Source: Octopus vulgaris
Taxonomy: Eukaryota
Reading direction: 5' to 3'
NCBI GenBank assembly: GCA_951406725.2
Contig: OX597822.1
Coordinates: 113,088,001-113,152,000, forward strand
Length of the DNA stretch: 64,000 nucleotides
The notes under the pieces are model-generated. The model had not been told where the DNA came from and searched no databases. It worked only from the letters and a program-made list of their open reading frames with translations. The stretch's first letter is position 1, and every line of letters begins with the position of its first letter. Shown here piece after piece: positions 4,331 through 64,000 of this stretch. Made by a program: the position numbers and the translations under genes.

Positions 4331-4334
<4 letters not shown>

Positions 4335-7300
4335 GGTATGTAGAAAAATACAACATGGACAAGAACGTATAACTCTTAGAAGACGACACAATAAACACGG
4401 ACAGGACATTCGAAACCCTCAGTCTTCAGTCAAGAACCGGATCATCGTAGTAATTTCGGCTGATTAATCTTGAGATTACTAGATCACGGCCAGCCCTCCA
4501 AGAAAAACAAGCAACGAGCATTAGAAAAACTAAGCTGGAAGCGTAGATTTCCTGGAAGAAGGATCGAATGCATACGAACACCAGGACAGCAAAAGGGACA
4601 GATATAAAAAAACAAAAAACAATAATGGAATACAGAAACATGAAATACAGAAGCATTAACGGTGAAAACAACGGTGTCTTACGACTGATAACAAGCAAAC
4701 AAATTTTTTCTCTGGCGCAATGGAAAAAGCCTTTATAGTGGCGGACGAAAACAGCGATGTTAACAGAACGAGGGTCAGAGGCTGAAAGGCAGATTTCGGC
4801 CAACAGTCACGTGACAGAGAAGAGGGAAAAGAAAAGAAAGAGAAGCAAAGGAAGAGAGAGAGAGAGGAGGGACAAACGCAACAAAGAGAGAGAAGAGAGA
4901 GAAAGAAGGAATCAGAGAGGAGAAGGGATGGGTGTCGAAGAATGACCTGTGAGTGCAGAGCGAGACAAAGAAATAGGAGGGTAGTGGAAGACTAGACCAA
5001 AGAATCAGAGGAAAGAGAAGAGAAAAAGAGGATGAGTAGAGAGAAAAGAGAGAGAGGGGGACAGATCAAGTAAAAATGAGAGAGAGAGAGAGACAAACAG
5101 AGAGTCGTACCAATTATTAAGAATATGTGCTCACATAAATGTTAAGGGGGGTACGGGGCGCCTGGAATATATGTTAAGGTATGTAGAAAAATACAACATG
5201 GACAAGAACGTATAACTCTTAGAAGACGACACAATAAACACGGACAGGACATTCGAAACCCTCAGTCTTCAGTCAAGAACCGGATCATCGTAGTAATTTC
5301 GGCTGATTAATCTTGAGATTACTAGATCACGGCCAGCCCTCCAAGAAAAACAAGCAACGAGCATTAGAAAAACTAAGCTGGAAGCGTAGATTTCCTGGAA
5401 GAAGGATCGAATGCATACGAACACCAGGACAGCAAAAGGGACAGATATAAAAAAACAAAAAACAATAATGGAATACAGAAACATGAAATACAGAAGCATT
5501 AACGGTGAAAACAACGGTGTCTTACGACTGATAACAAGCAAACAAATTTTTTCTCTGGCGCAATGGAAAAAGCCTTTATAGTGGCGGACGAAAACAGCGA
5601 TGTTAACAGAACGAGGGTCAGAGGCTGAAAGGCAGATTTCGGCCAACAGTCACGTGACAGAGAAGAGGGAAAAGAAAAGAAAGAGAAGCAAAGGAAGAGA
5701 GAGAGAGAGGAGGGACAAACGCAACAAAGAGAGAGAAGAGAGAGAAAGAAGGAATCAGAGAGGAGAAGGGATGGGTGTCGAAGAATGACCTGTGAGTGCA
5801 GAGCGAGACAAAGAAATAGGAGGGTAGTGGAAGACTAGACCAAAGAATCAGAGGAAAGAGAAGAGAAAAAGAGGATGAGTAGAGAGAAAAGAGAGAGAGG
5901 GGGACAGATCAAGTAAAAATGAGAGAGAGAGAGAGACAAACAGAGAGTCGTACCAATTATTAAGAATATGTGCTCACATAAATGTTAAGGGGGGTACGGG
6001 GCGCCTGGAATATATGTTAAGGTATGTAGAAAAATACAACATGGACAAGAACGTATAACTCTTAGAAGACGACACAATAAACACGGACAGGACATTCGAA
6101 ACCCTCAGTCTTCAGTCAAGAACCGGATCATCGTAGTAATTTCGGCTGATTAATCTTGAGATTACTAGATCACGGCCAGCCCTCCAAGAAAAACAAGCAA
6201 CGAGCATTAGAAAAACTAAGCTGGAAGCGTAGATTTCCTGGAAGAAGGATCGAATGCATACGAACACCAGGACAGCAAAAGGGACAGATATAAAAAAACA
6301 AAAAACAATAATGGAATACAGAAACATGAAATACAGAAGCATTAACGGTGAAAACAACGGTGTCTTACGACTGATAACAAGCAAACAAATTTTTTCTCTG
6401 GCGCAATGGAAAAAGCCTTTATAGTGGCGGACGAAAACAGCGATGTTAACAGAACGAGGGTCAGAGGCTGAAAGGCAGATTTCGGCCAACAGTCACGTGA
6501 CAGAGAAGAGGGAAAAGAAAAGAAAGAGAAGCAAAGGAAGAGAGAGAGAGAGGAGGGACAAACGCAACAAAGAGAGAGAAGAGAGAGAAAGAAGGAATCA
6601 GAGAGGAGAAGGGATGGGTGTCGAAGAATGACCTGTGAGTGCAGAGCGAGACAAAGAAATAGGAGGGTAGTGGAAGACTAGACCAAAGAATCAGAGGAAA
6701 GAGAAGAGAAAAAGAGGATGAGTAGAGAGAAAAGAGAGAGAGGGGGACAGATCAAGTAAAAATGAGAGAGAGAGAGAGACAAACAGAGAGTCGTACCAAT
6801 TATTAAGAATATGTGCTCACATAAATGTTAAGGGGGGTACGGGGCGCCTGGAATATATGTTAAGGTATGTAGAAAAATACAACATGGACAAGAACGTATA
6901 ACTCTTAGAAGACGACACAATAAACACGGACAGGACATTCGAAACCCTCAGTCTTCAGTCAAGAACCGGATCATCGTAGTAATTTCGGCTGATTAATCTT
7001 GAGATTACTAGATCACGGCCAGCCCTCCAAGAAAAACAAGCAACGAGCATTAGAAAAACTAAGCTGGAAGCGTAGATTTCCTGGAAGAAGGATCGAATGC
7101 ATACGAACACCAGGACAGCAAAAGGGACAGATATAAAAAAACAAAAAACAATAATGGAATACAGAAACATGAAATACAGAAGCATTAACGGTGAAAACAA
7201 CGGTGTCTTACGACTGATAACAAGCAAACAAATTTTTTCTCTGGCGCAATGGAAAAAGCCTTTATAGTGGCGGACGAAAACAGCGATGTTAACAGAACGA

Positions 7301-7990
7301 GGGTCAGAGGCTGAAAGGCAGATTTCGGCCAACAGTCACGTGACAGAGAAGAGGGAAAAGAAAAGAAAGAGAAGCAAAGGAAGAGAGAGAGAGAGGAGGG
7401 ACAAACGCAACAAAGAGAGAGAAGAGAGAGAAAGAAGGAATCAGAGAGGAGAAGGGATGGGTGTCGAAGAATGACCTGTGAGTGCAGAGCGAGACAAAGA
7501 AATAGGAGGGTAGTGGAAGACTAGACCAAAGAATCAGAGGAAAGAGAAGAGAAAAAGAGGATGAGTAGAGAGAAAAGAGAGAGAGGGGGACAGATCAAGT
7601 AAAAATGAGAGAGAGAGAGAGACAAACAGAGAGTCGTACCAATTATTAAGAATATGTGCTCACATAAATGTTAAGGGGGGTACGGGGCGCCTGGAATATA
7701 TGTTAAGGTATGTAGAAAAATACAACATGGACAAGAACGTATAACTCTTAGAAGACGACACAATAAACACGGACAGGACATTCGAAACCCTCAGTCTTCA
7801 GTCAAGAACCGGATCATCGTAGTAATTTCGGCTGATTAATCTTGAGATTACTAGATCACGGCCAGCCCTCCAAGAAAAACAAGCAACGAGCATTAGAAAA
7901 ACTAAGCTGGAAGCGTAGATTTCCTGGAAGAAGGATCGAATGCATACGAACACCAGGACAGCAAAAGGGACAGATATAAAAAAACAAAAA
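4331..7990. repeat. Tandem array of an 843-bp unit (4 full copies plus a 288-bp partial), flanked by (TA)n
   Basis: 'ttaaggtatgtag' recurs at 4331, 5174, 6017, 6860 and 7703; identical ORF-track peptides repeat every 843 bp. Confidence 0.97.
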
Positions 7991-8023
<33 letters not shown>

Positions 8024-12864: not shown

Positions 12865-13816
12865 TACTAAATAGATTGATTACTTTTTGTATGTTTTGGG
12901 GGTTGCCTGGTCTATGCCTCTATTTGCGAGTTTGTCTGTACCTTGTGTTTGCTGTTTACTTAGATGTTCAGTGATTTTGAACTTTTAACATTTCGATTAT
13001 TGTTTCAGCAAAAATTTCTATCCTTTCTACGTATATGAAATTCTCATATATATATAACAAACACACCCGCGCATGAACAAAGAAACAATCACACACAAAC
13101 ACGCTCATAAGCTAATATTTTATAATGGTAGGGAATTTATGATTGGGGCCAGGTAGTGATGGTGGTGGAATATTTGCTACTTCATTCATATTTCTGTTGC
13201 GTTCATTCCCTGTTTCAAATATGCATATCGCATACTTTATTAAGCGGATATGTGGCTGAATTTTACCACATAGCTATTTATGAAACCTTCCTCTTTCCCA
13301 TTTGCACTGATCTAGGTACTGACCTAGGTTTCTTTTTTCTTTAGAGTTATGCCTTCCATGCATTTCCCATATTATTCTTCATTTCTAATTTTACAATCTG
13401 TTTTTGAATTCCTCTACCACATTATACAGTTATTATTTCCACAGGGAGTCTTTTCAAAAGGGTATACCTTTCTTATCTCTTATCTAATAAATCTCTTTGA
13501 CGTTTCAGCTACTTCGATTTTATGTTTCCTTTATCTCAGTTTATAACTATTCTGAATTCATTAACAAGCTCACCTGGATTCTTATAGGAATTTTGTGTTT
13601 GTTATTTCTTGAATTTATCTCAACTATTTTCTTAATCGTTATTTCTAATTCATTCGATGACTTCCTCGAACTCATAACCTACCCTATAATGATTTCTAAC
13701 TATTTTTTGGCCCCGTTCTTTATTGTGGCCCTTTCTTCCTTTTTCTTTAGTTATATATACACGCCTACCACCACTATATATGAACATATCTATCTATCAA
13801 TGCGTATATGTGTATG

Positions 13817-13868
<52 letters not shown>

Positions 13869-13871
<3 letters not shown>

Positions 13872-14163
13872 TATTTTATAGAAGGAGCTTCTACAGGACT
13901 AGAACTGTTTCATTCCGATGAAATCTTCAGGAAGCTGGCTCCTAAATACCAACCTAGCCAAAAACGTCCCCCACCACCACCCCATTAAATCTGCCTAAAT
14001 GTATATATACCAGAACTTATTTTGATAGCCAGCTTCCTGAAGATTTCATCGGAATGAAACAGTTCTAGTCCTGTAGAAGCTCCTTCTATAAAATAAATTA
14101 CTTTACTCTGCTATGTATTGAGTACCTTATTTACTGTGGTTAAACCCGACTCAACCCGGGTCC

Positions 14164-14168
<5 letters not shown>
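13869..14168. mobile_element. Fold-back PLE-like element, family P2 (inverted termini plus a one-sided tail) in (TA)n
   Basis: 13870-13940 is the reverse complement of ~14028-14097; contains a CTGAAGA..GAAAC motif; same family as 36114-37998. Confidence 0.7.
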
Positions 14169-14210
<42 letters not shown>

Positions 14211-14216
<6 letters not shown>

Positions 14217-14586
14217 AAATGGAAAGATGAATTATCTTGTTACGGATTATTCAAAAGTTTAACCGATACCTGGGTAGCAAAAATCACAGCAGAAAAAACA
14301 CGGTTGGAGTTATGCCCATAGGGTGTTGCAACCGTGCGTTGGCGCGGATAATTGAAGTTTAATATAATTAGTGAATGGAAGAAATGGAGCTGAACGAAGA
14401 TTCTACAGAATTCCTTTTGTTACATTCTACACATGTTTCAAAGGCCACAAATTTCCAAATTCTGATTGAATAAGGATACCATATTGCAGCTTTCTCTTCA
14501 GGAAAATCCAGGAATTACGATGTCCAAACAAAACAAAGGCGCAGCAAGCAACCCGAACAAGAACGCTCCCTAGGAGCCCATTCACT

Positions 14587-14590
<4 letters not shown>
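14211..14590 (-). mobile_element. PLE pLTR fragment, family P3, between (TA)n tracts
   Basis: Contains the hammerhead at 14425-14504; terminus shared with 53935-54075. Confidence 0.65.
14425..14504 (-). ncRNA. Type I hammerhead ribozyme with extended helix II
   Basis: UUC-CUGAAGA-G-AAAG-CUGCAA...UUGUGG-C-CUUU-GAAA-C(AUGU)G-UA-GAA. Confidence 0.7.
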
Positions 14591-14637
<47 letters not shown>

Positions 14638-14661
14638 TATCTACATACGTACATACATGCT

Positions 14662-14693
<32 letters not shown>

Positions 14694-15217
14694 TACATAC
14701 ATGCGTGCATACATACATACATACATACATACATACATACATACATACATACATACATACATACACTGGTGGATAAACAGATACACAGAGAGGCAGAATG
14801 CTAATCTGAGAAAATTTCAACAAGTTTGCTGAGCTACAGATTCGCAAACATTTAAAGCAGGGTTGCGATATAAAAAATGTCCATTTATAAAAAATATTTC
14901 TTCATTATGTGTCTTAAAAATATAGTTGCTCTGTGTGTGTTTTTCTTTCTTTTAATGTTCGTCCAGAATCCGAGGAAACTGGTCTATGCCGGCCAAATTG
15001 GTCAATATATAGAGTTGAAAGAACTGCTAAATTTATTTGCTGTGAGCGGAGTTAAATATAAACGTATATCGTCTGATATATATATATATATGATATATAT
15101 GATATGCAAAGGAATGGACAAGTAACAGTGCTTGTATGATTGGATGAGAAGCAATAGACTCGAAGTGAACAAAGGTACAATAAAAGAAAATATTAAGCAA
15201 GAGCTTATATGTATGCA

Positions 15218-15256
<39 letters not shown>

Positions 15257-15289
15257 CCATATATCGCCATATATATATATATCGCCAGA

Positions 15290-15497
15290 TCGCCATGATG
15301 ATTCGCTAGCTTCTGCACGCATTTTTTCTCTCCTTGTTTCTCTCCGTGTTTCTTTTCTGTGTATCTTTATGTTGAAGAGCGTAGGCTCGAAACGTAGAAG
15401 ACTTGTTTTATTTATATTCCTGAGCGCCATACTAATACAATTGTTTGTTTATATTCCACCTGCCTTCGTCTTTTGTTTATTTTCATAAAGCTTCCCG

Positions 15498-15500
<3 letters not shown>
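15290..15500 (+). mobile_element. PLE pLTR fragment, family P4, with a degenerate hammerhead (15364-15401)
   Basis: 'gaagagcgtaggctcgaaacgta'; homologous to 55995-56200; followed by (TA)n. Confidence 0.6.
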
Positions 15501-15548
<48 letters not shown>

Positions 15549-15725
15549 GGCTTAGTAAAATAAATTACTTTGCCGCATACTGAACTCATTAGAAATAGCA
15601 GCTAAAAAACTTTTTTAAAACTATTTCTAATACTTAAAGAAAACCTCTCTCATATAGTGTTTGCTCAACTCAACTCACGAAAGTTTGGGGGTAAAGACAT
15701 CAAAAAATCAAATGCAAAGGTTATT

Positions 15726-15777
15726 TGAGAACGTACGTTTCAAGATTAGTCAACACGACACTTCTATCATCAGCTCA
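15726..15777 (-). ncRNA. Type I hammerhead ribozyme (copy 1 of P5)
   Basis: Reverse complement reads UGAG-CUGAUGA-U-AGA..GUC(GUGUU)GAC..UCU-U-GAAA-C(GUAC)G-UU-CUCA. Confidence 0.8.
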
Positions 15778-16284
15778 GAAACTCCTTGGTTTGGATTTGA
15801 AAACACTGAAAGTGAGAGCATACCCTTTCGGCTTCTCATCGCTTTCGAAGATCTGCTCGTAACTAACAGTACCAACAAACTCAAATATGCAAGCGAAGAA
15901 TTTCTGTTCTCCCCTTTCCACCAGCGTGGGTTAAAATCAGCAAACACTATGCTTATTTCGGTAAAATCCGAAGCATTAATTAGAGGGAGATTAATTATAA
16001 TTTCAACAATTGAGGGTAAAATTAATTAATTATTAATCAATTTCACCAAGTGTTCAGTATGCAAAGGGACTATTTAAGGCGAATTCAAATTATTACATTA
16101 TATAAAAGGGCTTAGTAAAATAAATTACTTTGCCGCATACTGAACTCATTAGAAATAGCAGCTAAAAAACTTTTTTAAAACTATTTCTAATACTTAAAGA
16201 AAACCTCTCTCATATAGTGTTTGCTCAACTCAACTCACGAAAGTTTGGGGTAAAGACATCAAAAAATCAAATGCAAAGGTTATT

Positions 16285-16336
16285 TGAGAACGTACGTTTC
16301 AAGATTAGTCAACACGACACTTCTATCATCAGCTCA
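16285..16336 (-). ncRNA. Type I hammerhead ribozyme (copy 2 of P5)
   Basis: Same sequence as copy 1. Confidence 0.8.
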
Positions 16337-16956
16337 GAAACTCCTTGGTTTGGATTTGAAAACACTGAAAGTGAGAGCATACCCTTTCGGCTTCTCATCG
16401 CTTTCGAAGATCTGCTCGTAACTAACAGTGCCAACAAACTCAAATATGCAAGCGAAGAATTTCTGTTCTCCCCTTTCCACCAGCGTGGGTTAAAATCAGC
16501 GTGGGTTGAGCAAACACTATATGAGAGAGGTTTTCTTTAAGTATTAGAAATAGTTTTAAAAAAGTTTTTTAGCTGCTATTTCTAATGAGTTCAGTATGCG
16601 GCAAAGTAATTTATTTTACTAAGCCCTTTTATATAATGTAATAATTTGAATTCGCCTTAAATGGTCCCTTTGCATACTGAACACTTGGTGAAATTGATTA
16701 ATAATTAATTAATTTTACCCTCAATTGCTGAAATTATAATCAATCTCCCTCTAATTAATGCTTCGGATTTTACCGAAATAAGCATAGTGTTTGCTGATTT
16801 TAACCCACGCTGGTGGAAAGGGGAGAACAGAAATTCTTCGCTTGCATATTTGAGTTTGTTGGCACTGTTAGTTACGAGCAGATCTTCGAAAGCGATGAGA
16901 AGCCGAAAGGGTATGCTCTCACTTTCAGTGTTTTCAAATCCAAACCAAGGAGTTTC

Positions 16957-17008
16957 TGAGCTGATGATAGAAGTGTCGTGTTGACTAATCTTGAAACGTA
17001 CGTTCTCA
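16957..17008 (+). ncRNA. Type I hammerhead ribozyme (copy 3 of P5, inverted arm)
   Basis: tgag-ctgatga-tagaagtgtcgtgttgactaatctt-gaaa-c-gtac-g-tt-ctca. Confidence 0.8.
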
Positions 17009-17289
17009 AATAACCTTTGCATTTGATTTTTTGATGTCTTTACCCCCAAACTTTCGTGAGTTGAGTTGAGCAAACACTATATGAGAGAGGTTTTCTTTAA
17101 GTATTAGAAATAGTTTTAAAAAGTTTTTTAGCTGCTATTTCTAATGAGTTCAGTATGCGGCAAAGTAATTTATTTTACTAAGCCCTTTTATATAATGTAA
17201 TAATTTGAATTCGCCTTAAATGGTCCCTTTGCATACTGAACACTTGGTGAAATTGATTAATAATTAATTAATTTTACCCTCAATTGTTG

Positions 17290-17336
<47 letters not shown>

Positions 17337-17614
17337 AACAGCCACAAAAAGTGTTAGAGTTGAGACTACTGGATAAAGTGCAATAGTGCGGAAGTTGAAG
17401 AACAAGGAAGATAGACATGTACGATACATCAAACATGCAAAAATAGAGATTCAGTTATGATTATGGCTTGATGTATTGTACCAATCTACCATCCAGTACA
17501 CAACCTTCCTTACCACTATGTTTTAACCAGTCACCTATATATGTTTATGTGCAAACATGCATTTCTTTCTTTCTTTATCTCCTCTCTCTCTCTCTCTCTC
17601 TCTCCTTGAACATA

Positions 17615-23194: not shown

Positions 23195-23533
23195 GTGTAC
23201 ACTCACGCATAAATATACTCACATATAGTAAGAGAAGTTACATAGACCACTACGGATTAAATATTGAAATATGTGTGCAATAAAGTTTGTCTACGCATAG
23301 TCTTAGGCATATGTGAACACGCGAACAAATAGGTATGGGTATATGATGTATACGTACATATATATAAATATCTATAATATGCATGAATATATATATATAT
23401 ATATGCATGTTATGTATATGAACAGATATATATATATATAAATATCGATCGTTTGTAGAAAACGTAAATCCGAAAAAAACACACGCTAAGATGTAGAGTA
23501 GTATATATTTAAAATGAGGACGGCCAGTTTATG

Positions 23534-23592
23534 GGATTACCTCAGATTTCCCGTCCATTAAGGGTTTTGCTTTATGGCGTATCGTCAGACCC
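23534..23592 (-). ncRNA. Type I hammerhead ribozyme in the left pLTR
   Basis: GGGU-CUGACGA-UA-CG-CCAU..AUGG-A-CG-G-GAAA-U(CUGAG)G-UA-AUCC. Confidence 0.65.
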
Positions 23593-24238
23593 AAAAAACC
23601 CGTTGGCCCATAAAAACTTTGCGTCAAACTCTAAATGCCGCATGATCAATTCGGCCAAATCCGTGATCGATCTGGCGAGCAAGCACATATTGAGAGATAT
23701 CAATAACGACATAAGGAGGGCCACCAACCTTTCTCTCTGGTGCAACATCAACGAAGTGACCGCATGGTTTAACACCAACAAAGGAAGAGGCAGAGCAAGG
23801 TTCGCCCAGTTTGATATACTCGACTTCTACCCGTCTGTATCAAAAGGACAACTGGCCAAGGCGCTTTCTTTCGCTAGGGACTTTACTAACATTAGCGACA
23901 GAGATCTAGAAGTTATTATGCATGCCAGAAAGACAGTGCTGTTCAACAAAGGTTCGGCATGGGTCAAGCAATCCAACCACACGGGCTCCTTTGATGTCGC
24001 GGATGGTACAGCCTCGATACCCTTAGAAAAAGTTCCCCCTCTGTCTTCTTTGACCTCTACAGAGATGACACTCAACGGGGTGCAAGCGAGCATACATTAG
24101 ACAGGCTTAGAAAATATCTAATAAGCCCGCTTGCCTCCATGGGACTGAAAATCACCATAGAGACCAACCTCACAACCGCGTAGTAGGCAGGCATTTCCCC
24201 CTCCATATTTTTAAGTGGTCATGGGCCAACAGATTTTT

Positions 24239-24299
24239 GGGATTTGACGACACGCCATAAAGCTAAACCCGTTATGGACGGGAAACCTAAGGTAATCCC
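24239..24299 (+). ncRNA. Type I hammerhead motif in the right pLTR (C3->U core change)
   Basis: GGGAU-UUGACGA-..CCAUAA..UUAUGG..-GAAA-CC(UAA)GG-UA-AUCCC. Confidence 0.6.
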
Positions 24300-24354
24300 A
24301 TAAACTAGCCCACCCCATTTTTAAAGATGCAAGGCTCCATCTTTAGAACGTAGT

Positions 24355-27246: not shown

Positions 27247-27671
27247 CACTATGGATTGGGTCACCTTCTCTGTGATGCTATTAAGACTTTTTTTAAAATT
27301 CTGTGATAAGACTGTACATCATCTTTAAAGAACTTTAATGAACTTTTGAAATCTGTTTATGTTACTTAATTATCTACATTACTTCATGAGTATAGCCTCA
27401 ACCACTAGGATGTCTAGAGAACTCACATGTATTTTAGCTGATGAGTACGGGACACGTTTATATGCTGTAATTTTTGCAACTTTTAATAAAACCTGTCCTT
27501 GTATGAAACGATTGTACTAAAAACCTATCCATTCTTGTTGCTTCATTCTCGCTTATAATCACCCCACATTACTGTATTGTTAAATCAGTATAGTTTTTTT
27601 TGGTGCATCTAAGTTAGGTACCATATTCAAGTAAATTCATTTAAATTAACTTGAATCTTTATTGCTTTTTG
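27245..27671 (+). mobile_element. PLE pLTR fragment, family P7, between (TA)n tracts
   Basis: Contains an intact hammerhead; flanked on both sides by TA repeats. Confidence 0.6.
27432..27522 (+). ncRNA. Type I hammerhead ribozyme with long helix II
   Basis: UUUUAG-CUGAUGA-G-UAC-GGGACA...UGUCCUU-GUA-U-GAAA-C(GAUU)G-UA-CUAAAA; helix I is 6 bp. Confidence 0.82.
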
Positions 27672-35659: not shown

Positions 35660-38039
<2,380 letters not shown>

Positions 38040-40298: not shown

Positions 40299-41064
40299 TT
40301 CTTTTCTACTCTAGGCACAAGACCCGAAATTTTGGTGGAGGGGCCAGTCGATTAGATCGACCCCAGTATGCAACTGTTACTTAATCTATCGATCCTGAAA
40401 GGATTAAAGGCAAAGTCGACCTCGGCGGAATTTGAACTCAGAACGTAACGGCAGACGAAATACCTATTTCTCTACTACCCACAAAGGGCTAAACACTGAG
40501 AGAACAAACAAGGACAGACACACGGATTAAGTCGATTACATCGACCCCAGTGCGTAACTAGTACTTAATTTATCGACCCCGAGAGGATGAAAGGCAAAGT
40601 CGACCTCGGCGGAATTTGAACCCAGAACGTAACGGCAGACGAAATACCTATTTCTTTACTACCCACAAGGGGTTAAACACAGAGAGAACAAACAAGGACA
40701 GACACACGGATTAAGTCGATTACATCGACCCCAGTGCGTAACTAGTACTTAATTTATCGACCCCGAGAGGATGAAAGGCAAAGTCGACCTCGGCGGAATT
40801 TGAACCCAGAACGTAACGGCAGACGAAATACCTATTTCTTTACTACCCACAAGGGGCTAAACACAGAGAGAACAAACAAGGACAGACACACGGATTAAGT
40901 CGATTATATTGACCCCAGTGCGTAACTGGTACTTAATTTATCGACCCCGAGAGGATGAAAAGCAAAGTCGACCTCGGCGGAATTTGAACTCAGAACATAA
41001 CGGCAGACGAAATACGGCAACGAATTTCGCCCGGCGTGCTAACGTTTCTGCCAGCTCGCCGCCT
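40299..41064 (-). mobile_element. SINE family C (Meta-domain-like) with a tandem 184-bp internal unit
   Basis: 'gaac(g/a)taacggcagacgaaatac' recurs at 40441, 40625, 40809 and 40993; head 'aaggcggcgagctggcagaa'; core 'gcctttcatcct(c/t)tcggggtcgataaa'. Confidence 0.9.
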
Positions 41065-41703
41065 TGGAAAATTGAAAATATTAAATACGTGAGGAATTTT
41101 ATAAAATGCAACAATATGCCATCCTGTAAGTTGGCACGATCATTAGACCGTTGGAGAAAAGGCTTTATAGCCTTGCCCTCGATATTATTTTGTATGTTCT
41201 AATGACGTTGGGGGTTGTCTTTGTTTATCGTTTCCCTTTCTGGGATCGATAAAATAAAGTACTAGTCAAGTGCTGGGTCAACTCAACTGATTTTTTCTTC
41301 CCACCTCAAAATTTTAGTTTCGTGGCTATGTCAGAAATCTTATTTTGAGACGAGATAAATATATTTTAGGGAGAAATTGTGATAACTTAATTGTTCATAA
41401 AGTCAACAGCGGCATAAGAGGAGCGAGTTAAACTTAAATTTGGAACTGAAATTGCTAAGAGCCTACAAATTCTGTTTTATAAAATAGAATTTACATCACC
41501 TTTCTTTTTAATTGAGATTATTTATTAATACGGTCATTTAATTTAACACGAATGAGAAGAAATATGCTCGTGAAAGTATAGAAGTTGTACACCTCAAAAG
41601 GAAAATAAATGTATTTTTACACAAATTTAACTTTATAAAACAAGTGACTACTTTATCGCGTGACTATTCTATCCTTTATAAGTTTTAGTCATTTTCCTTT
41701 CAG

Positions 41704-54330: not shown

Positions 54331-54340
<10 letters not shown>

Positions 54341-54705
54341 TTAGAAACAAAACCACCATTTTGCAAATCAAACAAAGAAAGACTTAATCCAATACATAAA
54401 AAAATTTAATATAAATTAAATAAAATTAAATTCGCCACTACAATTGTTTCGTGTCTCTTCTAAGGACATTCATCAGGTGGATTTCAGATCTTCTATTCAA
54501 TTTTAAGTTATGAAGTGAATTTAATTTTATTTAATCTATATTAATTTTTTTTTTGTATTGGATTAAGTCTTTCTTTGTTTGATTTGCAAAATAGTGGTTT
54601 TGTCTCTAATTAATATTATATAATATTTTACTATAAAATTGGATTCAATCCTAAATCTGATTTTTCCCTGTAAATTTGGATTTATTCCCTAATATTTATT
54701 ATTAT
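54331..54705. mobile_element. Fold-back PLE-like element, family P8
   Basis: Arms ~54331-54433 and ~54516-54620 are inverted; hammerhead lies in the loop; tail 54621-54705 is shared with 62297-62385. Confidence 0.8.
54435..54480 (-). ncRNA. Minimal type I hammerhead ribozyme
   Basis: CCAC-CUGAUGA-A-UGUC(CUUAGAAGA)GACA-C-GAAA-C(AAUU)G-UA-GUGG. Confidence 0.85.
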
Positions 54706-55029: not shown

Positions 55030-55369
55030 GAGAGAGAGAAAAAAAGAGGGAGAGAGAGAGAAAAAAAAAGAGAGAAAAGAGAGAGAGAAAAAAGAGAGAG
55101 AGAGAGAGGTGTTCGGGCTAAATTTGACGATTTTTATGTCTCCTTTTTTCAGGAAGAGCTTTATGTATTGCTGTACAGTCAACGGCATGGGAGTGCATAA
55201 AGATTAAAACTGTTGCGGACGAAAAATTAACTGACATGAAAGACCGAAAGTCACCTAAAGACTGAAAGAGTTATCTACATCACGATATGTAAACAACAAA
55301 CCTCCCACAATAAATAAAAATTAGAAAAAGTAAAAGTAAAATAATCTGGTTTAGCCTCCACACCGATAG

Positions 55370-55945
55370 CTAAATCATTTTTCAAACTACTACACTTCCA
55401 TCCCGACCATAATTACTTCAAACTAATAAAAAAATGCAACGGAAAATTGTTATATTCCACATCCAACAACTTTGAAAAACTGTAGCCAATTCCAACCACC
55501 AAAACCTCTCAAAAAGCGACAACTTAATTTACACACATATTAACAATTGCAATTGTAGAACACTTTTATCCTGTCCTCTTGAAGGAAACTGTCTCACAAG
55601 CAAAACTGTCTATAGCGTAACAGTAACCACCAACATGACATCAAGTGCCATCTACATATATAAAATCTAAAGCATGCTAGTTCAAGACACAGTACAACCA
55701 TCACACGCACACTTTTCTTAACCCAAATTGGAAAATGATACATAACTATTCAAACGTATATGAACACCTAAATTAAAGATACTTCTACTAGCATCAGATA
55801 AAAAATACTTTCACACGCACAACTACACCAAGTTAACAACAAAGCCTGCTAATTGTGGTAGTAATGAATCCTACCATATACTCACATTCAAGAACCAAAT
55901 TCTGAACAGAAACTGAACTAGTCTCTTCATGCAAACACAAAATGT
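55370..55945 (+). mobile_element. Decayed Penelope-like GIY-YIG endonuclease region
   Basis: 'NNCNCRTLLSCPLEGNCLTSKTVYSVTV', 'FKTQYNHH', 'ILNR..ELVSSCKHK', with frameshifts and stops. Confidence 0.75.
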
Positions 55946-55994: not shown

Positions 55995-56200
55995 AGTCGC
56001 CATGATAGATCGTTAGCCACTACACACATTTTTTCTCTCCTTGTTTCTCTCCTTGTTTCTTTCTGTGTTCCTTTCTGTAGAAGAGCGTAGGCTCGAAACG
56101 TAAAAGACTTTTTTCTATTCCTGAGCATTATACTAATACATCTGTTTGTTTTGTACACCGCCTGTCTTCGTCTTTTGTTTTTTTCGTAAACTCTCCCTAT
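55995..56200 (+). mobile_element. PLE pLTR fragment, family P4 (hammerhead variant at 56071-56106)
   Basis: cttt-ctgtaga-a-gagc(gtag)gctc-gaaac-gta-aaag; homologous to 15290-15500. Confidence 0.65.
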
Positions 56201-56289: not shown

Positions 56290-56930
56290 TATCTTTGTTT
56301 TAATGTTTAGTTAAAATAAAAACAATTTTACATTAATCTGAATGGTTACGACTTATTTTTGTGGACCACAAATTTATTATCCTTCAACAAGAATAGTGTT
56401 GACAGTAACTTCGAAATTTCGGTCAACTAAGCAATCATCCGACTGTGATGCATTAAGTTAATCTTGTCTTTATATAGTCTCTGTTGAGTTAAATTTCTTT
56501 TTCTGGGTTTGTGGGATTTGGTTCAATAATATTTAGATTGCATGGTGTGTTGTAATGGAGGATATTTTTTATTGATTAAATTTAGGGTTACTTTTATTCA
56601 GAATTTATTCATGCGTGTAGAACTTTGTAAACAGATGCATATATTTAGATGTGCCATGGGATAGTTTTTTTATAGGTTCACAAAAAGAAGTAATCATATA
56701 GAAGAAATCTATTGGTTAGCGGATGTGTCATTAGTTTTACTTATTTTTGATTTTATTTTGCATTTAATCCTTTGCTTTGGAATACTTTGCTTTGGCAATG
56801 TAAATATATATTTTCTGGACATTTATAAAGAGAAAGTTAGTCTTACAGCTGTTTCTGTGATATTAGGGATATTCCTTCTTCAGAGACGATGTGAGATGGT
56901 TAAGTAGAGGGAAAAAGTTGAGTTTAATAT
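56290..56930 (-). mobile_element. Possible highly decayed PLE 3' end with a hammerhead relic (56403-56445)
   Basis: Reverse complement CAGU-CGGAUGA-...-GAAA-U(UUCGAA)G-UU-ACUG; weak 'ILNK' remnant upstream. Confidence 0.35.
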
Positions 56931-59183: not shown

Positions 59184-59600
59184 AAGGCGGCGAGCTGGCA
59201 GAAACGTTAGCACGCTGGGCGAAATGCGTAGCCGTATTTCGTCTGCCGCTACGTTCTGAGTTTAAATTCCGCCGAGGTCGACTTTGCCTTTCATCCTTTC
59301 GAGGACGATTAAATAAGTACCAGTTACGCACTGGGGTCGATGTAATCGACTTAATCCGTTTGTCTGTCCTTGTTTATCCTCTCTGTATTTAGCCCCTTGT
59401 GGGTTGTAAAGAAATAGGGATTTCGTCTGCCGTTACGTTCTGAGTTCAAATTCCGCCGAGGTCGACTTTGCCTTTCATCTTTTCGGGGCCGATTAAATAA
59501 GTACCAGTTACGCACTGGGGCCGATATAATCAACTTAATCCGTTTGTCTTTCCTTGTTTGTCCACTCTATGTTTAGCCCCCTGTGGGCAATAAATAAATA
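59184..59600 (+). mobile_element. SINE family C with two tandem units
   Basis: Head at 59184; unit restarts at ~59420 'atttcgtctgccg'. Confidence 0.9.
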
Positions 59601-60002
59601 AATATTATATATGCACAGATCCATTTAGTATAAGGGATATGTGTGTAAGTACATATAAATACATACGCGCGTCTTGTACGTGCGTGTTTATATTCATATA
59701 TACGGAAGTATGTTCGTTTGCCAAGTTTGAAGCAGATAAATATAAAGTTACCTCCCTAGCCGTCTCTGTATTCCATTCTTGCCTCTTTAGACTGATTCAA
59801 TGTTTACAAGGCGAAGAAACGAAATGAAGAATATTTTCTTGATTAATCATGACTGAAGGAGGAAAATATATATTTCCAAACAAAATTCGACAGTTGTATC
59901 CAATGAAAAAGTTTGAGGAACAAAAGAATTTGCTCTAGACCATTGTGATGTTATGTTTTGATGCTACGTTTCTTGCACTACTACATCAACTGATGCACAT
60001 AT

Positions 60003-62200: not shown

Positions 62201-62295
<95 letters not shown>

Positions 62296-62509
62296 TAATA
62301 ATAAATATTAGGGAATAAATCCAAACTTACAGGGAAAAATCAGATTTAGGATTGAATCCAATTTTATAGTAAAATATTATATTATATTAAATTAGAGACA
62401 AAACCACTATTAGGCAAATCAAACAATGAAAAACTTAAGCCAATACATATGATTAATTTATATTATTTAAATATATATCAAAATTATTAAAAAAATATAA
62501 TTAATATCA

Positions 62510-62573
62510 CACTACGATCATTTCATGCCTGCTAACATCTTCAAATTTTTGAGTCGCAGTCATTCATCAGGTG
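62510..62573 (-). ncRNA. Type I hammerhead ribozyme (left arm)
   Basis: CAC-CUGAUGA-AUG...CAU-GAAA-U(GAUC)G-UA-GUG. Confidence 0.7.
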
Positions 62574-62627
62574 GTTTAAATATCTAAAATATAATCAATA
62601 TTTTTAAGATATAAATAATATATATAA

Positions 62628-63144
62628 CTAGCAGTATCGCCCGGCGTTGCTCGGGTTTGTAAGGGAAATAACTATATAAGCATTTTTAGAGAGTTACTTC
62701 CCTTATAGATGCCAATTCGGGCTTTCTTAGCCATTTCTGTTTTGGTGTCTTCAAGCCATGAAGTCGTTGTTCTAAAAGAACGCTGGTCTCCTTGACAACG
62801 CATTACGACGTTGATTTCCTTAAACTCCCTTCCCCACAGCTTCACGAGGGAGGGAAGAAGGGGGAGAAGCAAACACAGGTGCAGGTGTTTAAGCGTGGAC
62901 GCCAACTCCGCCGCCATCGACACACGAAAAATTATGCATTAAAATGGAATAAAAAATGATGTTAAATTATTTTTAAAATCGTAGACTCATCGTAGACGCG
63001 CGCTAATAGCCAGACGGGCTCGATATTAATCACGACTATAAGATACCCGAATTTGGTTAAACTGCACCGCAAAATGTGGGAGGAGTTAGGAATCTAAATC
63101 GTAGGAGACAGACACTCACACAACTACAGTTTTATATATATAGA
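62628..63144 (-). mobile_element. Complete non-autonomous Helitron (517 bp)
   Basis: On the minus strand: 5' TCTATATATATAAAA, 3' hairpin CCCGAGCAACGCCGGG ~9 nt before terminal CTAG; inserted between A and T with no TSD; the opposite arm of the fold-back lacks it. Confidence 0.92.
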
Positions 63145-63846
63145 TATAATAATTTTACTTATAATAAACTCTATTATTAAATATGATTATATCGAAATCG
63201 ACTATAATGTAAATATTGTTGTTTATGTAATGATCTAATTATCGTAATTTTCTATGTTATTAGATATTAAATAAATTAGATAAACTTTGATAAAATTAGA
63301 TATGTTTCGACTAAAGATTGGTCTAGGCCATGTCTAATTTAAAAGCATAATTTATATTAGATAATTATTCCAATTCATAATTATATTTATAGTACTTATA
63401 GTATTTGTTTAATACTATATTACTAAGAATTGAATATTTCTATAAGTATTTTACATAAGATTTTGAAAGTCAGTTTAAGTTAGTTTATTTGTATTTTGAA
63501 ATTAGCTAATTCATCTTTAAATATGAAAAATGAAATTTATTAGGTTTTCATTATATACAATTATTTATAGAGATTATTTTAGATCTTGATTACAATATTT
63601 ATATATATTTTCATTGATAATTTATATATATTAGTCATTTTAAATATTTATGTAATTAGATATAGACTAATATTGATATTAGAATATGGGTTTTCTACCT
63701 TATAAATTAAAGTTAATATTTAACATTATAGTCGATTTCGATATAATCATATTTAATAATAGAGTTTATTATAAGTAAATTATTATTTTATATTATATAT
63801 ATTATTTATATCTTAAAAATATTGATTATATTTTAGATATTTAAAT

Positions 63847-63910
63847 CACCTGATGAATGACTGCGACTCAAAAATTTGAAGATGTTAACAGGCATGAAAC
63901 GATCGTAGTG
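63847..63910 (+). ncRNA. Type I hammerhead ribozyme (right arm)
   Basis: CAC-CUGAUGA-AUG...CAU-GAAA-C(GAUC)G-UA-GUG. Confidence 0.78.
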
Positions 63911-64000
63911 TGATATTAATTATATTTTTTTAATAATTTTGTTATATATTTAAATAATATAAATTAATCATATGTATTGGCTTAAGTTTTTCATTGTTTG

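Follow-up and report, generated by a model that had tools for sequence, protein, structure and literature searches.

How does a single locus come to hold the same ribozyme-bearing repeat both head-to-tail and in opposite orientation? The question is raised by positions 15540–17297 of the Octopus vulgaris DNA analyzed here (the window, 64 kb of repeat-dense, microsatellite-rich animal sequence), where a repeat unit of 559 nt is delimited by two predicted minus-strand hammerhead cut sites. An earlier note on this DNA proposed that the unit had been amplified in tandem and then inverted into a palindrome of about 1.75 kb. We consider it probable that the locus is instead a young copy of a high-copy, non-coding hammerhead repeat derived from Penelope-like elements (PLEs), both arms of which were written in one event at a (TA)n microsatellite. 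The features on which the argument draws are as follows:

15499..15544, no strand: (TA)23, probably the left half of the target microsatellite
15540..16500, minus strand: left arm, 1.7 units (unit positions 348–559, 1–559 and 1–190)
15730..16288, minus strand: predicted 559-nt monomer between two cut sites
15773 to 15730, minus strand: copy 2 of the type I hammerhead core, with cleavage predicted 3′ of the U at 15730
15939..15950, plus strand: one arm (unit 339–350) of the unit's 12-nt long-range inverted repeat; its partner, unit 64–75, lies at 16214–16225
16332 to 16289, minus strand: copy 1 of the type I hammerhead core, with cleavage predicted 3′ of the U at 16289
16481..16520, no strand: head-to-head (5′–5′) junction of the arms at the unit's 12-nt inverted repeat
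16502..17297, plus strand: right arm, 1.4 units (unit positions 57–559 and 1–293)
16961 to 17004, plus strand: copy 3 of the type I hammerhead core, with cleavage predicted after 17004
17294..17334, no strand: (TA)20, probably the right half of the target microsatellite

The hammerhead cores read CUGAUGA, 25 nt, GAAAC, GUAC, GUU, where GUAC forms a palindromic loop III and GUU is the predicted cleavage site. The two minus-strand cores lie head-to-tail and 559 nt apart, an arrangement expected of an animal non-LTR retrozyme, and the third lies on the plus strand, just as the earlier note had it. A strict scan for the core together with a palindromic loop III and helix I recovers six motifs in the window as against none in each of 200 shuffles (2-base blocks, microsatellites removed), a number that chance does not explain. 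The description of these hammerheads as intact holds for no more than the core: helix III extends by only 1 bp beyond A15.1–U16.1, helix II starts with a U.U mismatch and N17 is a U. Helix I has 4 bp beside the core, followed by an internal loop after which it resumes. Such an anatomy is of the dimer type, and motifs of this kind are described as cleaving poorly as monomers and better as dimers (PMC4209133, PMC7229834), while in one recent account eight of nine predicted Xenopus dimers did not cleave (bioRxiv 10.64898/2026.07.22.740005). Over the same 116 nt, the constrained hammerhead fold has a predicted energy of −10.4 kcal/mol versus −16.9 kcal/mol for the free fold, a difference of 6.5 kcal/mol, and the 59-nt core alone folds at −6.6 kcal/mol without helix III. 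Rfam returns no match at the gathering threshold over the whole window, and the 59 matches at E ≤ 10 over 13500–17600 are mostly microsatellite noise and include no hammerhead family. Self-cleavage of the hammerheads of the 559-nt unit is a prediction from their motif.

Among the listed variants of the family none falls on the 18 core positions other than N7, an absence short of significance (hand estimate, about 0.2). One variant, at 16325, changes the basal U.U of helix II to G.U; it accounts for about a quarter of the depth in one sequencing run, X4, guessed to be RNA, and for almost none in three others, a contrast between different individuals and few contigs that is to be taken as a lead only. 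A GC-richer stem with two small hairpins (16877–16919 in the right arm), which has no Rfam match, lies about 40 nt upstream of each hammerhead.

The unit has a GC content of 0.32–0.35, and its longest frames, 123–124 aa from stop to stop, run antisense to the ribozyme. A scan of two of these antisense frames gave no Pfam match near a curated cut-off, and we rejected them as genes. The unit is thus non-coding, low in GC and a few hundred nucleotides long, as are the animal non-LTR retrozymes (Cervera & de la Peña 2020, PMC7229834; Li, Clavereau & Pollet 2026, bioRxiv 10.64898/2026.07.22.740005), in which units with one type I hammerhead apiece are likewise arranged head-to-tail. The likeness extends to the ribozymes of the axolotl, HHR_Amex1 sharing the 1-bp helix III with a palindromic tetraloop and HHR_Amex2 the U.U at the base of helix II (PMC7229834). 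With 559 nt the unit exceeds the 150–450 bp given in PMC7229834 and falls within the 51–972 bp given in bioRxiv 10.64898/2026.07.22.740005, where retrozymes are derived from the pLTRs of PLEs. It differs from the published animal retrozymes in that cleavage and circles have been demonstrated for those, whereas for the octopus unit both are predictions. The locus holds no ORF combining RT and GIY-YIG domains as an autonomous PLE would, and tblastn with 14 long RT-family relatives finds matches elsewhere in the window and none at the locus of the 559-nt unit. Taken by its sequence features, the unit is likely a non-autonomous PLE, i.e., an animal non-LTR retrozyme. The earlier note's view of a young retrozyme-like locus is borne out by the tandem type I hammerheads, the low GC, the lack of coding capacity and the few differences between copies.

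The unit belongs to a large family. It is present in 20 of the 24 listed public sequencing runs, from nine studies and under three organism labels; no run is recorded as RNA, run X4 being labeled so by guess, and all that follows concerns contigs only. Four runs were aligned to 16232–16790, which is exactly one unit with the junction of the locus in its middle. Family contigs number 4394, 806 and 10259 in the three runs that are tentatively labeled as DNA or unlabeled, and 172 in the putative RNA run, and are mostly 90–99% alike. The normal continuation of the unit (16498/16787) is found in all four runs, while the share of contigs passing into unlike sequence is 0 in three runs and 0.03 in the putative RNA run. 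Since almost no contigs leave the unit, the family consists of a closed head-to-tail unit, which is dispersed in multiple copies as is typical of animal non-LTR retrozymes. A metagenome scan yielded three loci with a 19-nt pattern alone, which were taken as chance.

Within the octopus locus, the two arms stand head-to-head with their 3′ ends facing outwards (in the ribozyme sense the left arm runs from 16500 to 15540 and the right arm from 16502 to 17297), and they are out of phase with each other. The palindrome of the earlier note is therefore real as an inverted pair but not a perfect one: the main pair (15545–16232 with 16502–17188) has 688 bp and a spacer of 269 nt, and in a second register 16000–16500 pairs with 16793–17293. 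At its outer end the left arm passes into (TA)23, at the TATATA of the unit, and the right arm passes into (TA)20 at a different TATA; alternating-AT runs of at least 4 nt end at only seven of the 559 unit positions, and both arm ends lie at such runs. TATA sites of the unit lie at 73–77, 185–190 and 290–293. The junction falls on the inverted repeat formed by unit 64–75 and 339–350, the sole perfect one with separated arms of at least 12 nt in the circular unit, which also forms a helix in its predicted fold. There the locus carries 11 extra bases (16498–16508) that are largely templated by 16481–16491. Since the arm ends merge into (TA)n, a target-site duplication is unreadable, and an optional tail of 30–40 bp is not apparent at this locus. 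The (TA)23 follows an older repeat (15290–15496), the other copy of which (55997–56197) is likewise followed by (TA)n; this suggests that the microsatellite was probably there before the insertion.

These traits have close counterparts among PLE insertions and pLTR derivatives such as MRC1, in which a partial tandem adjoins an inverted, 5′-truncated copy, and which are biased towards microsatellites that hide the duplicated target site (PMC8557442). The octopus locus has the same partial tandem with an inverted, 5′-truncated, head-to-head copy, between microsatellite tracts at its two ends. Head-to-head is also the polarity described as usual for PLEs (Arkhipova 2013, PMC3846280), and in Schistosoma pairs of hammerheads on opposite strands are reported 100–700 bp apart (Cervera & de la Peña 2014, PMC4209133), as compared to about 630 bp for the opposite-strand pair of the octopus locus. 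The word "inverted" is absent from the main text of PMC7229834. There are also differences: unlike endonuclease-bearing PLE insertions the locus lacks an RT/GIY-YIG ORF, and, unlike in the published PLE insertions, both of its arms exceed one unit and cross hammerhead sites.

The copies within the locus are 98.7–99.5% alike, in agreement with the earlier note's near-identical units. Between the five partial copies there are four substitutions, all of them transitions, and two homopolymer indels; each substitution is private to one copy and none is common to two copies against a third. If the octopus substitution rate of 0.0036 per million years quoted in PMC13282606 applies, and sequencing error is ignored, the locus would be under about one million years old. 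Of the 39 sites that vary in the family and have at least twofold coverage in the locus, 38 are uniform among the copies, and this indicates that both arms derive from one haplotype, or one type of template.

Near-identity of copies would also be expected had a tandem array arisen by unequal exchange and then undergone an inverted duplication through fork switching or break repair, with the hammerhead a mere passenger; local tandem amplification of a solo pLTR has indeed been proposed (bioRxiv 10.64898/2026.07.22.740005). Such an origin at the DNA level appears very unlikely to us. The flanks outside the microsatellites are not mirrored, their common matches of only 10–11 nt being at chance level, and both outer ends stop at TATA/(TA)n. 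Further, the polarity with 3′ ends outwards recurs well beyond the locus. Among 15 of 40 joints in the family contigs, 12 are head-to-head inversions leading from the antisense into the sense half at other breakpoints, and three are strand changes (one of them the normal continuation), with none tail-to-tail; 12 of 15 joints from a second table add seven more head-to-head junctions, several with short inserted letters. At least 19 distinct family junctions thus have the polarity of the locus, one row inside the left half being left out, although each rests on a single contig with 20–29 letters on its short side and a likeness of 88, and is flagged as less reliable. The same polarity is seen in other families of the window (see below). 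A DNA accident explains neither this bias nor the TATA ends, both of which count against it. As to the sequence of amplification in tandem followed by inversion that the earlier note envisaged, the different TATA sites at the arm ends and the unmirrored flanks speak against it, as does the fact that each arm is longer than a fold-back of the other could supply. Together, the arm ends, flanks and arm lengths fit a single two-ended insertion such as PLEs are described to make.

A structure of this sort might also be produced by the assembly or the reads, as a fold-back chimera or as mis-joined repeat copies, and PLE structures are noted to trouble assemblies (PMC8557442). In the four runs no contig piece bridges the exact junction at 16500 among the 32 listed (15,770 further pieces exist), which leans the same way. 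However, the two arms have their own phases, end points and private substitutions, the insertion at the junction is templated, the flanks are distinct, and randomly mis-joined members of the family would not agree at 38 of 39 variable sites. Given the phase difference, the private changes and the distinct flanks, we regard an artifact as highly improbable.

We return to the probable reading, an insertion written from two ends. In such an event a PLE endonuclease, as a borrowed enzyme, would nick both strands of the (TA)n, and each nicked 3′ end would anneal to a UAUA in the element RNA and be extended towards the middle. Each cDNA would run for more than one unit, through hammerhead sites, on an uncleaved multimer or a circle, and the two cDNAs, whose ends share 12 nt of complementarity at the inverted repeat, would join with the 11-nt slipped insertion. 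That the arms exceed one unit and cross hammerhead sites points to an uncut multimer or a circle as the template, and between the two we judge the balance nearly even, tilted slightly to the multimer, which would comprise at least 3.1 units if it was a single RNA. With AT-rich DNA, the purified Anolis PLE protein nicks both strands and extends them; it uses mainly uncleaved RNA, and in vitro it starts at RNA sites that are not homologous to the target (PMC11167929). These data support priming on two strands and count against the microhomology step and against a circular template. Circles have in turn been proposed as templates for copies of more than unit length (PMC4209133).

Alternatively, a single target-primed cDNA could account for the locus if the inverted arm arose at the 12-nt inverted repeat through self-priming, fold-back or a template jump, possibly on an antisense transcript, with the second end attached later by microhomology-mediated repair. 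The position of the junction on the inverted repeat with its slipped 11-nt insertion is as this would have it, and the head-to-head junctions of PLEs have been explained by self-priming on antisense RNA together with microhomology joining (Arkhipova 2013, PMC3846280). Against this, the 1.7-unit left arm and the right arm reaching unit 293 are each too long to have been templated by the other from the nearest site. These lengths rule out a simple fold-back, which copies only the content of the first arm, and at least one further jump to RNA would be needed; hence we deem the single-cDNA route unlikely.

In the twin priming of LINE-1 elements a single RNA is primed by two target 3′ ends, and the resulting cDNAs, which copy non-overlapping parts of one linear poly(A) RNA, join head-to-head by microhomology. 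Unlike those, the octopus cDNAs overlap in unit sequence, and there is no poly(A); the overlap calls for a multimer, a circle or two RNAs. This leaves room for a special form of the two-ended event, twin-primed rolling-circle RT, in which a PLE dimer would prime both strands of a (TA)n cut on two UAUA sites of one ribozyme-made 559-nt circle, with each direction continuing for more than one round and the cDNAs joined at the long-range RNA helix. We entertain it tentatively, as a possibility of about one chance in a few.

The monomer is predicted to fold well (−148.9 kcal/mol, z of −5.1), and the antisense strand has a z of −4.7, so close that the z-score does not single out the sense strand. 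Nor are the helices of the predicted circle fold spared by family variants, 13 of 39 of which break helices as compared to 12.2 ± 2.3 at random (P = 0.71; 39 of the 40 listed variant rows were used, the reference letter of the dropped row being the private allele of the locus).

On the side of RNA output, the 559-nt linear or circular RNA of the earlier note is best taken as a prediction for the family, the tandem copies of which would yield the monomer or circle via dimeric hammerheads. For the present locus the outlook is different. Whichever flank transcription enters from, the antisense arm is read first, and in folds of the whole locus the two strands form 688 and 690 long-range pairs. 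The single hammerhead of the plus strand is fully paired; of the two on the minus strand, one is likewise fully paired and the second does not take the hammerhead form. A read-through RNA, the long dsRNA of the earlier note, is thus predicted by these models to form a hairpin of about 690 bp that buries the ribozymes. With the antisense arm transcribed first and paired to the sense arm, read-through would suppress rather than yield the monomer, and the locus could yield a monomer only from a transcript starting inside it, at most about 170 nt upstream of the first core. Neither an A box nor a B box of Pol III turned up in the locus; two octamer-like CTTTGCAT sites are a weak lead. A bacterial promoter scan of the locus, irrelevant for this host, stays at background level.

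The outward-pointing, two-armed layout is found at four other places in the window (13871–14163, 36119–37997, 54334–54702 and 62290–64000), all belonging to other hammerhead-like families and bounded by (TA)n wherever both ends are in view. Two of these, 13871–14163 and 36119–37997, are head-to-head pairs of a second family bounded by (TA)n, the copies of which have one common, defined 3′ end (14163, 36119) while the other arm ends internally. A third family (54334–54702 and 62290–64000) has type I cores with palindromic loops III (AAUU, GAUC) in inverted arrangement, the latter locus with unrelated sequence between its arms. At 4331–7991 there are 4.3 head-to-tail copies, 100% identical, of an 843-nt unit with (TA)n on both sides; a CUGAAGA...GAAU motif on its minus strand resembles a non-canonical hammerhead core, and the unit folds no better than shuffles. 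The array is likely another very young PLE-type multimer or else an over-expanded assembly. Further solo type I hammerhead-like cores occur at 27438–27516, with a long, well-paired helix II followed by (TA)n, and at 56844–56883, and the older repeat in the left flank (15290–15496) has a minimal hammerhead-like motif at 15372. Tandem copies of an abundant SINE-like repeat with a 184-nt period lie at 40346–41066 and 59184–59606.

The window also has decayed ORFs of a family with an RT and a C-terminal region, at 23591–24174, 53798–53213 and 55354–55734. We take the C-terminal part to be a GIY-YIG-like endonuclease, as read by eye from the motifs. The ORF at 23591–24174 has 2093 relatives at E ≤ 0.001, the long ones of which align to all three places, and RVT_1 is found in two of the 12 long relatives scanned, below the curated cut-off. 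Word-index protein searches for the ORF at 23513 gave no match; Atlas matches were unnamed or weak, with a weak lead towards the endonuclease reading, and cluster look-ups gave no names. The stretch 23508–24325, with an RT-like fragment inside an inverted repeat of about 105 nt that has hammerhead-like half cores, is a truncated PLE-type insertion. The repeat copy at 55997–56197 lies just downstream of such a decayed RT/GIY-YIG-like ORF remnant and is on that account likely a PLE pLTR. Within the 64-kb window none of the ORF remnants adjoins or resembles the 559-nt unit, nor is there a pLTR of an autonomous PLE similar to it.

Both the class of element and its tandem-plus-inverted layout have been published, and the layout recurs in the window; the locus is thus an ordinary one for this genome. 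The family itself is apparently an undescribed retrozyme family in the octopus genome. Our literature searches listed no paper on cephalopod retrozymes, though repeat libraries or supplements may list the family as Penelope or "unknown", and the main text of a 2026 repeat annotation of Octopus vulgaris does not use the word "ribozyme". The value of the locus is that of a clean, young example of a tandem/inverted insertion, and the family supplies many junctions with comparable ends, phases and haplotypes for what has been named an open task, namely how PLEs form such insertions (Craig 2021, PMC8557442). Should the rolling-circle reading be true, the junctions of the family would be a natural data set on the copying of circles versus uncut multimers by PLEs and retrozymes, and the same junctions would inform how the inverted arm arises.
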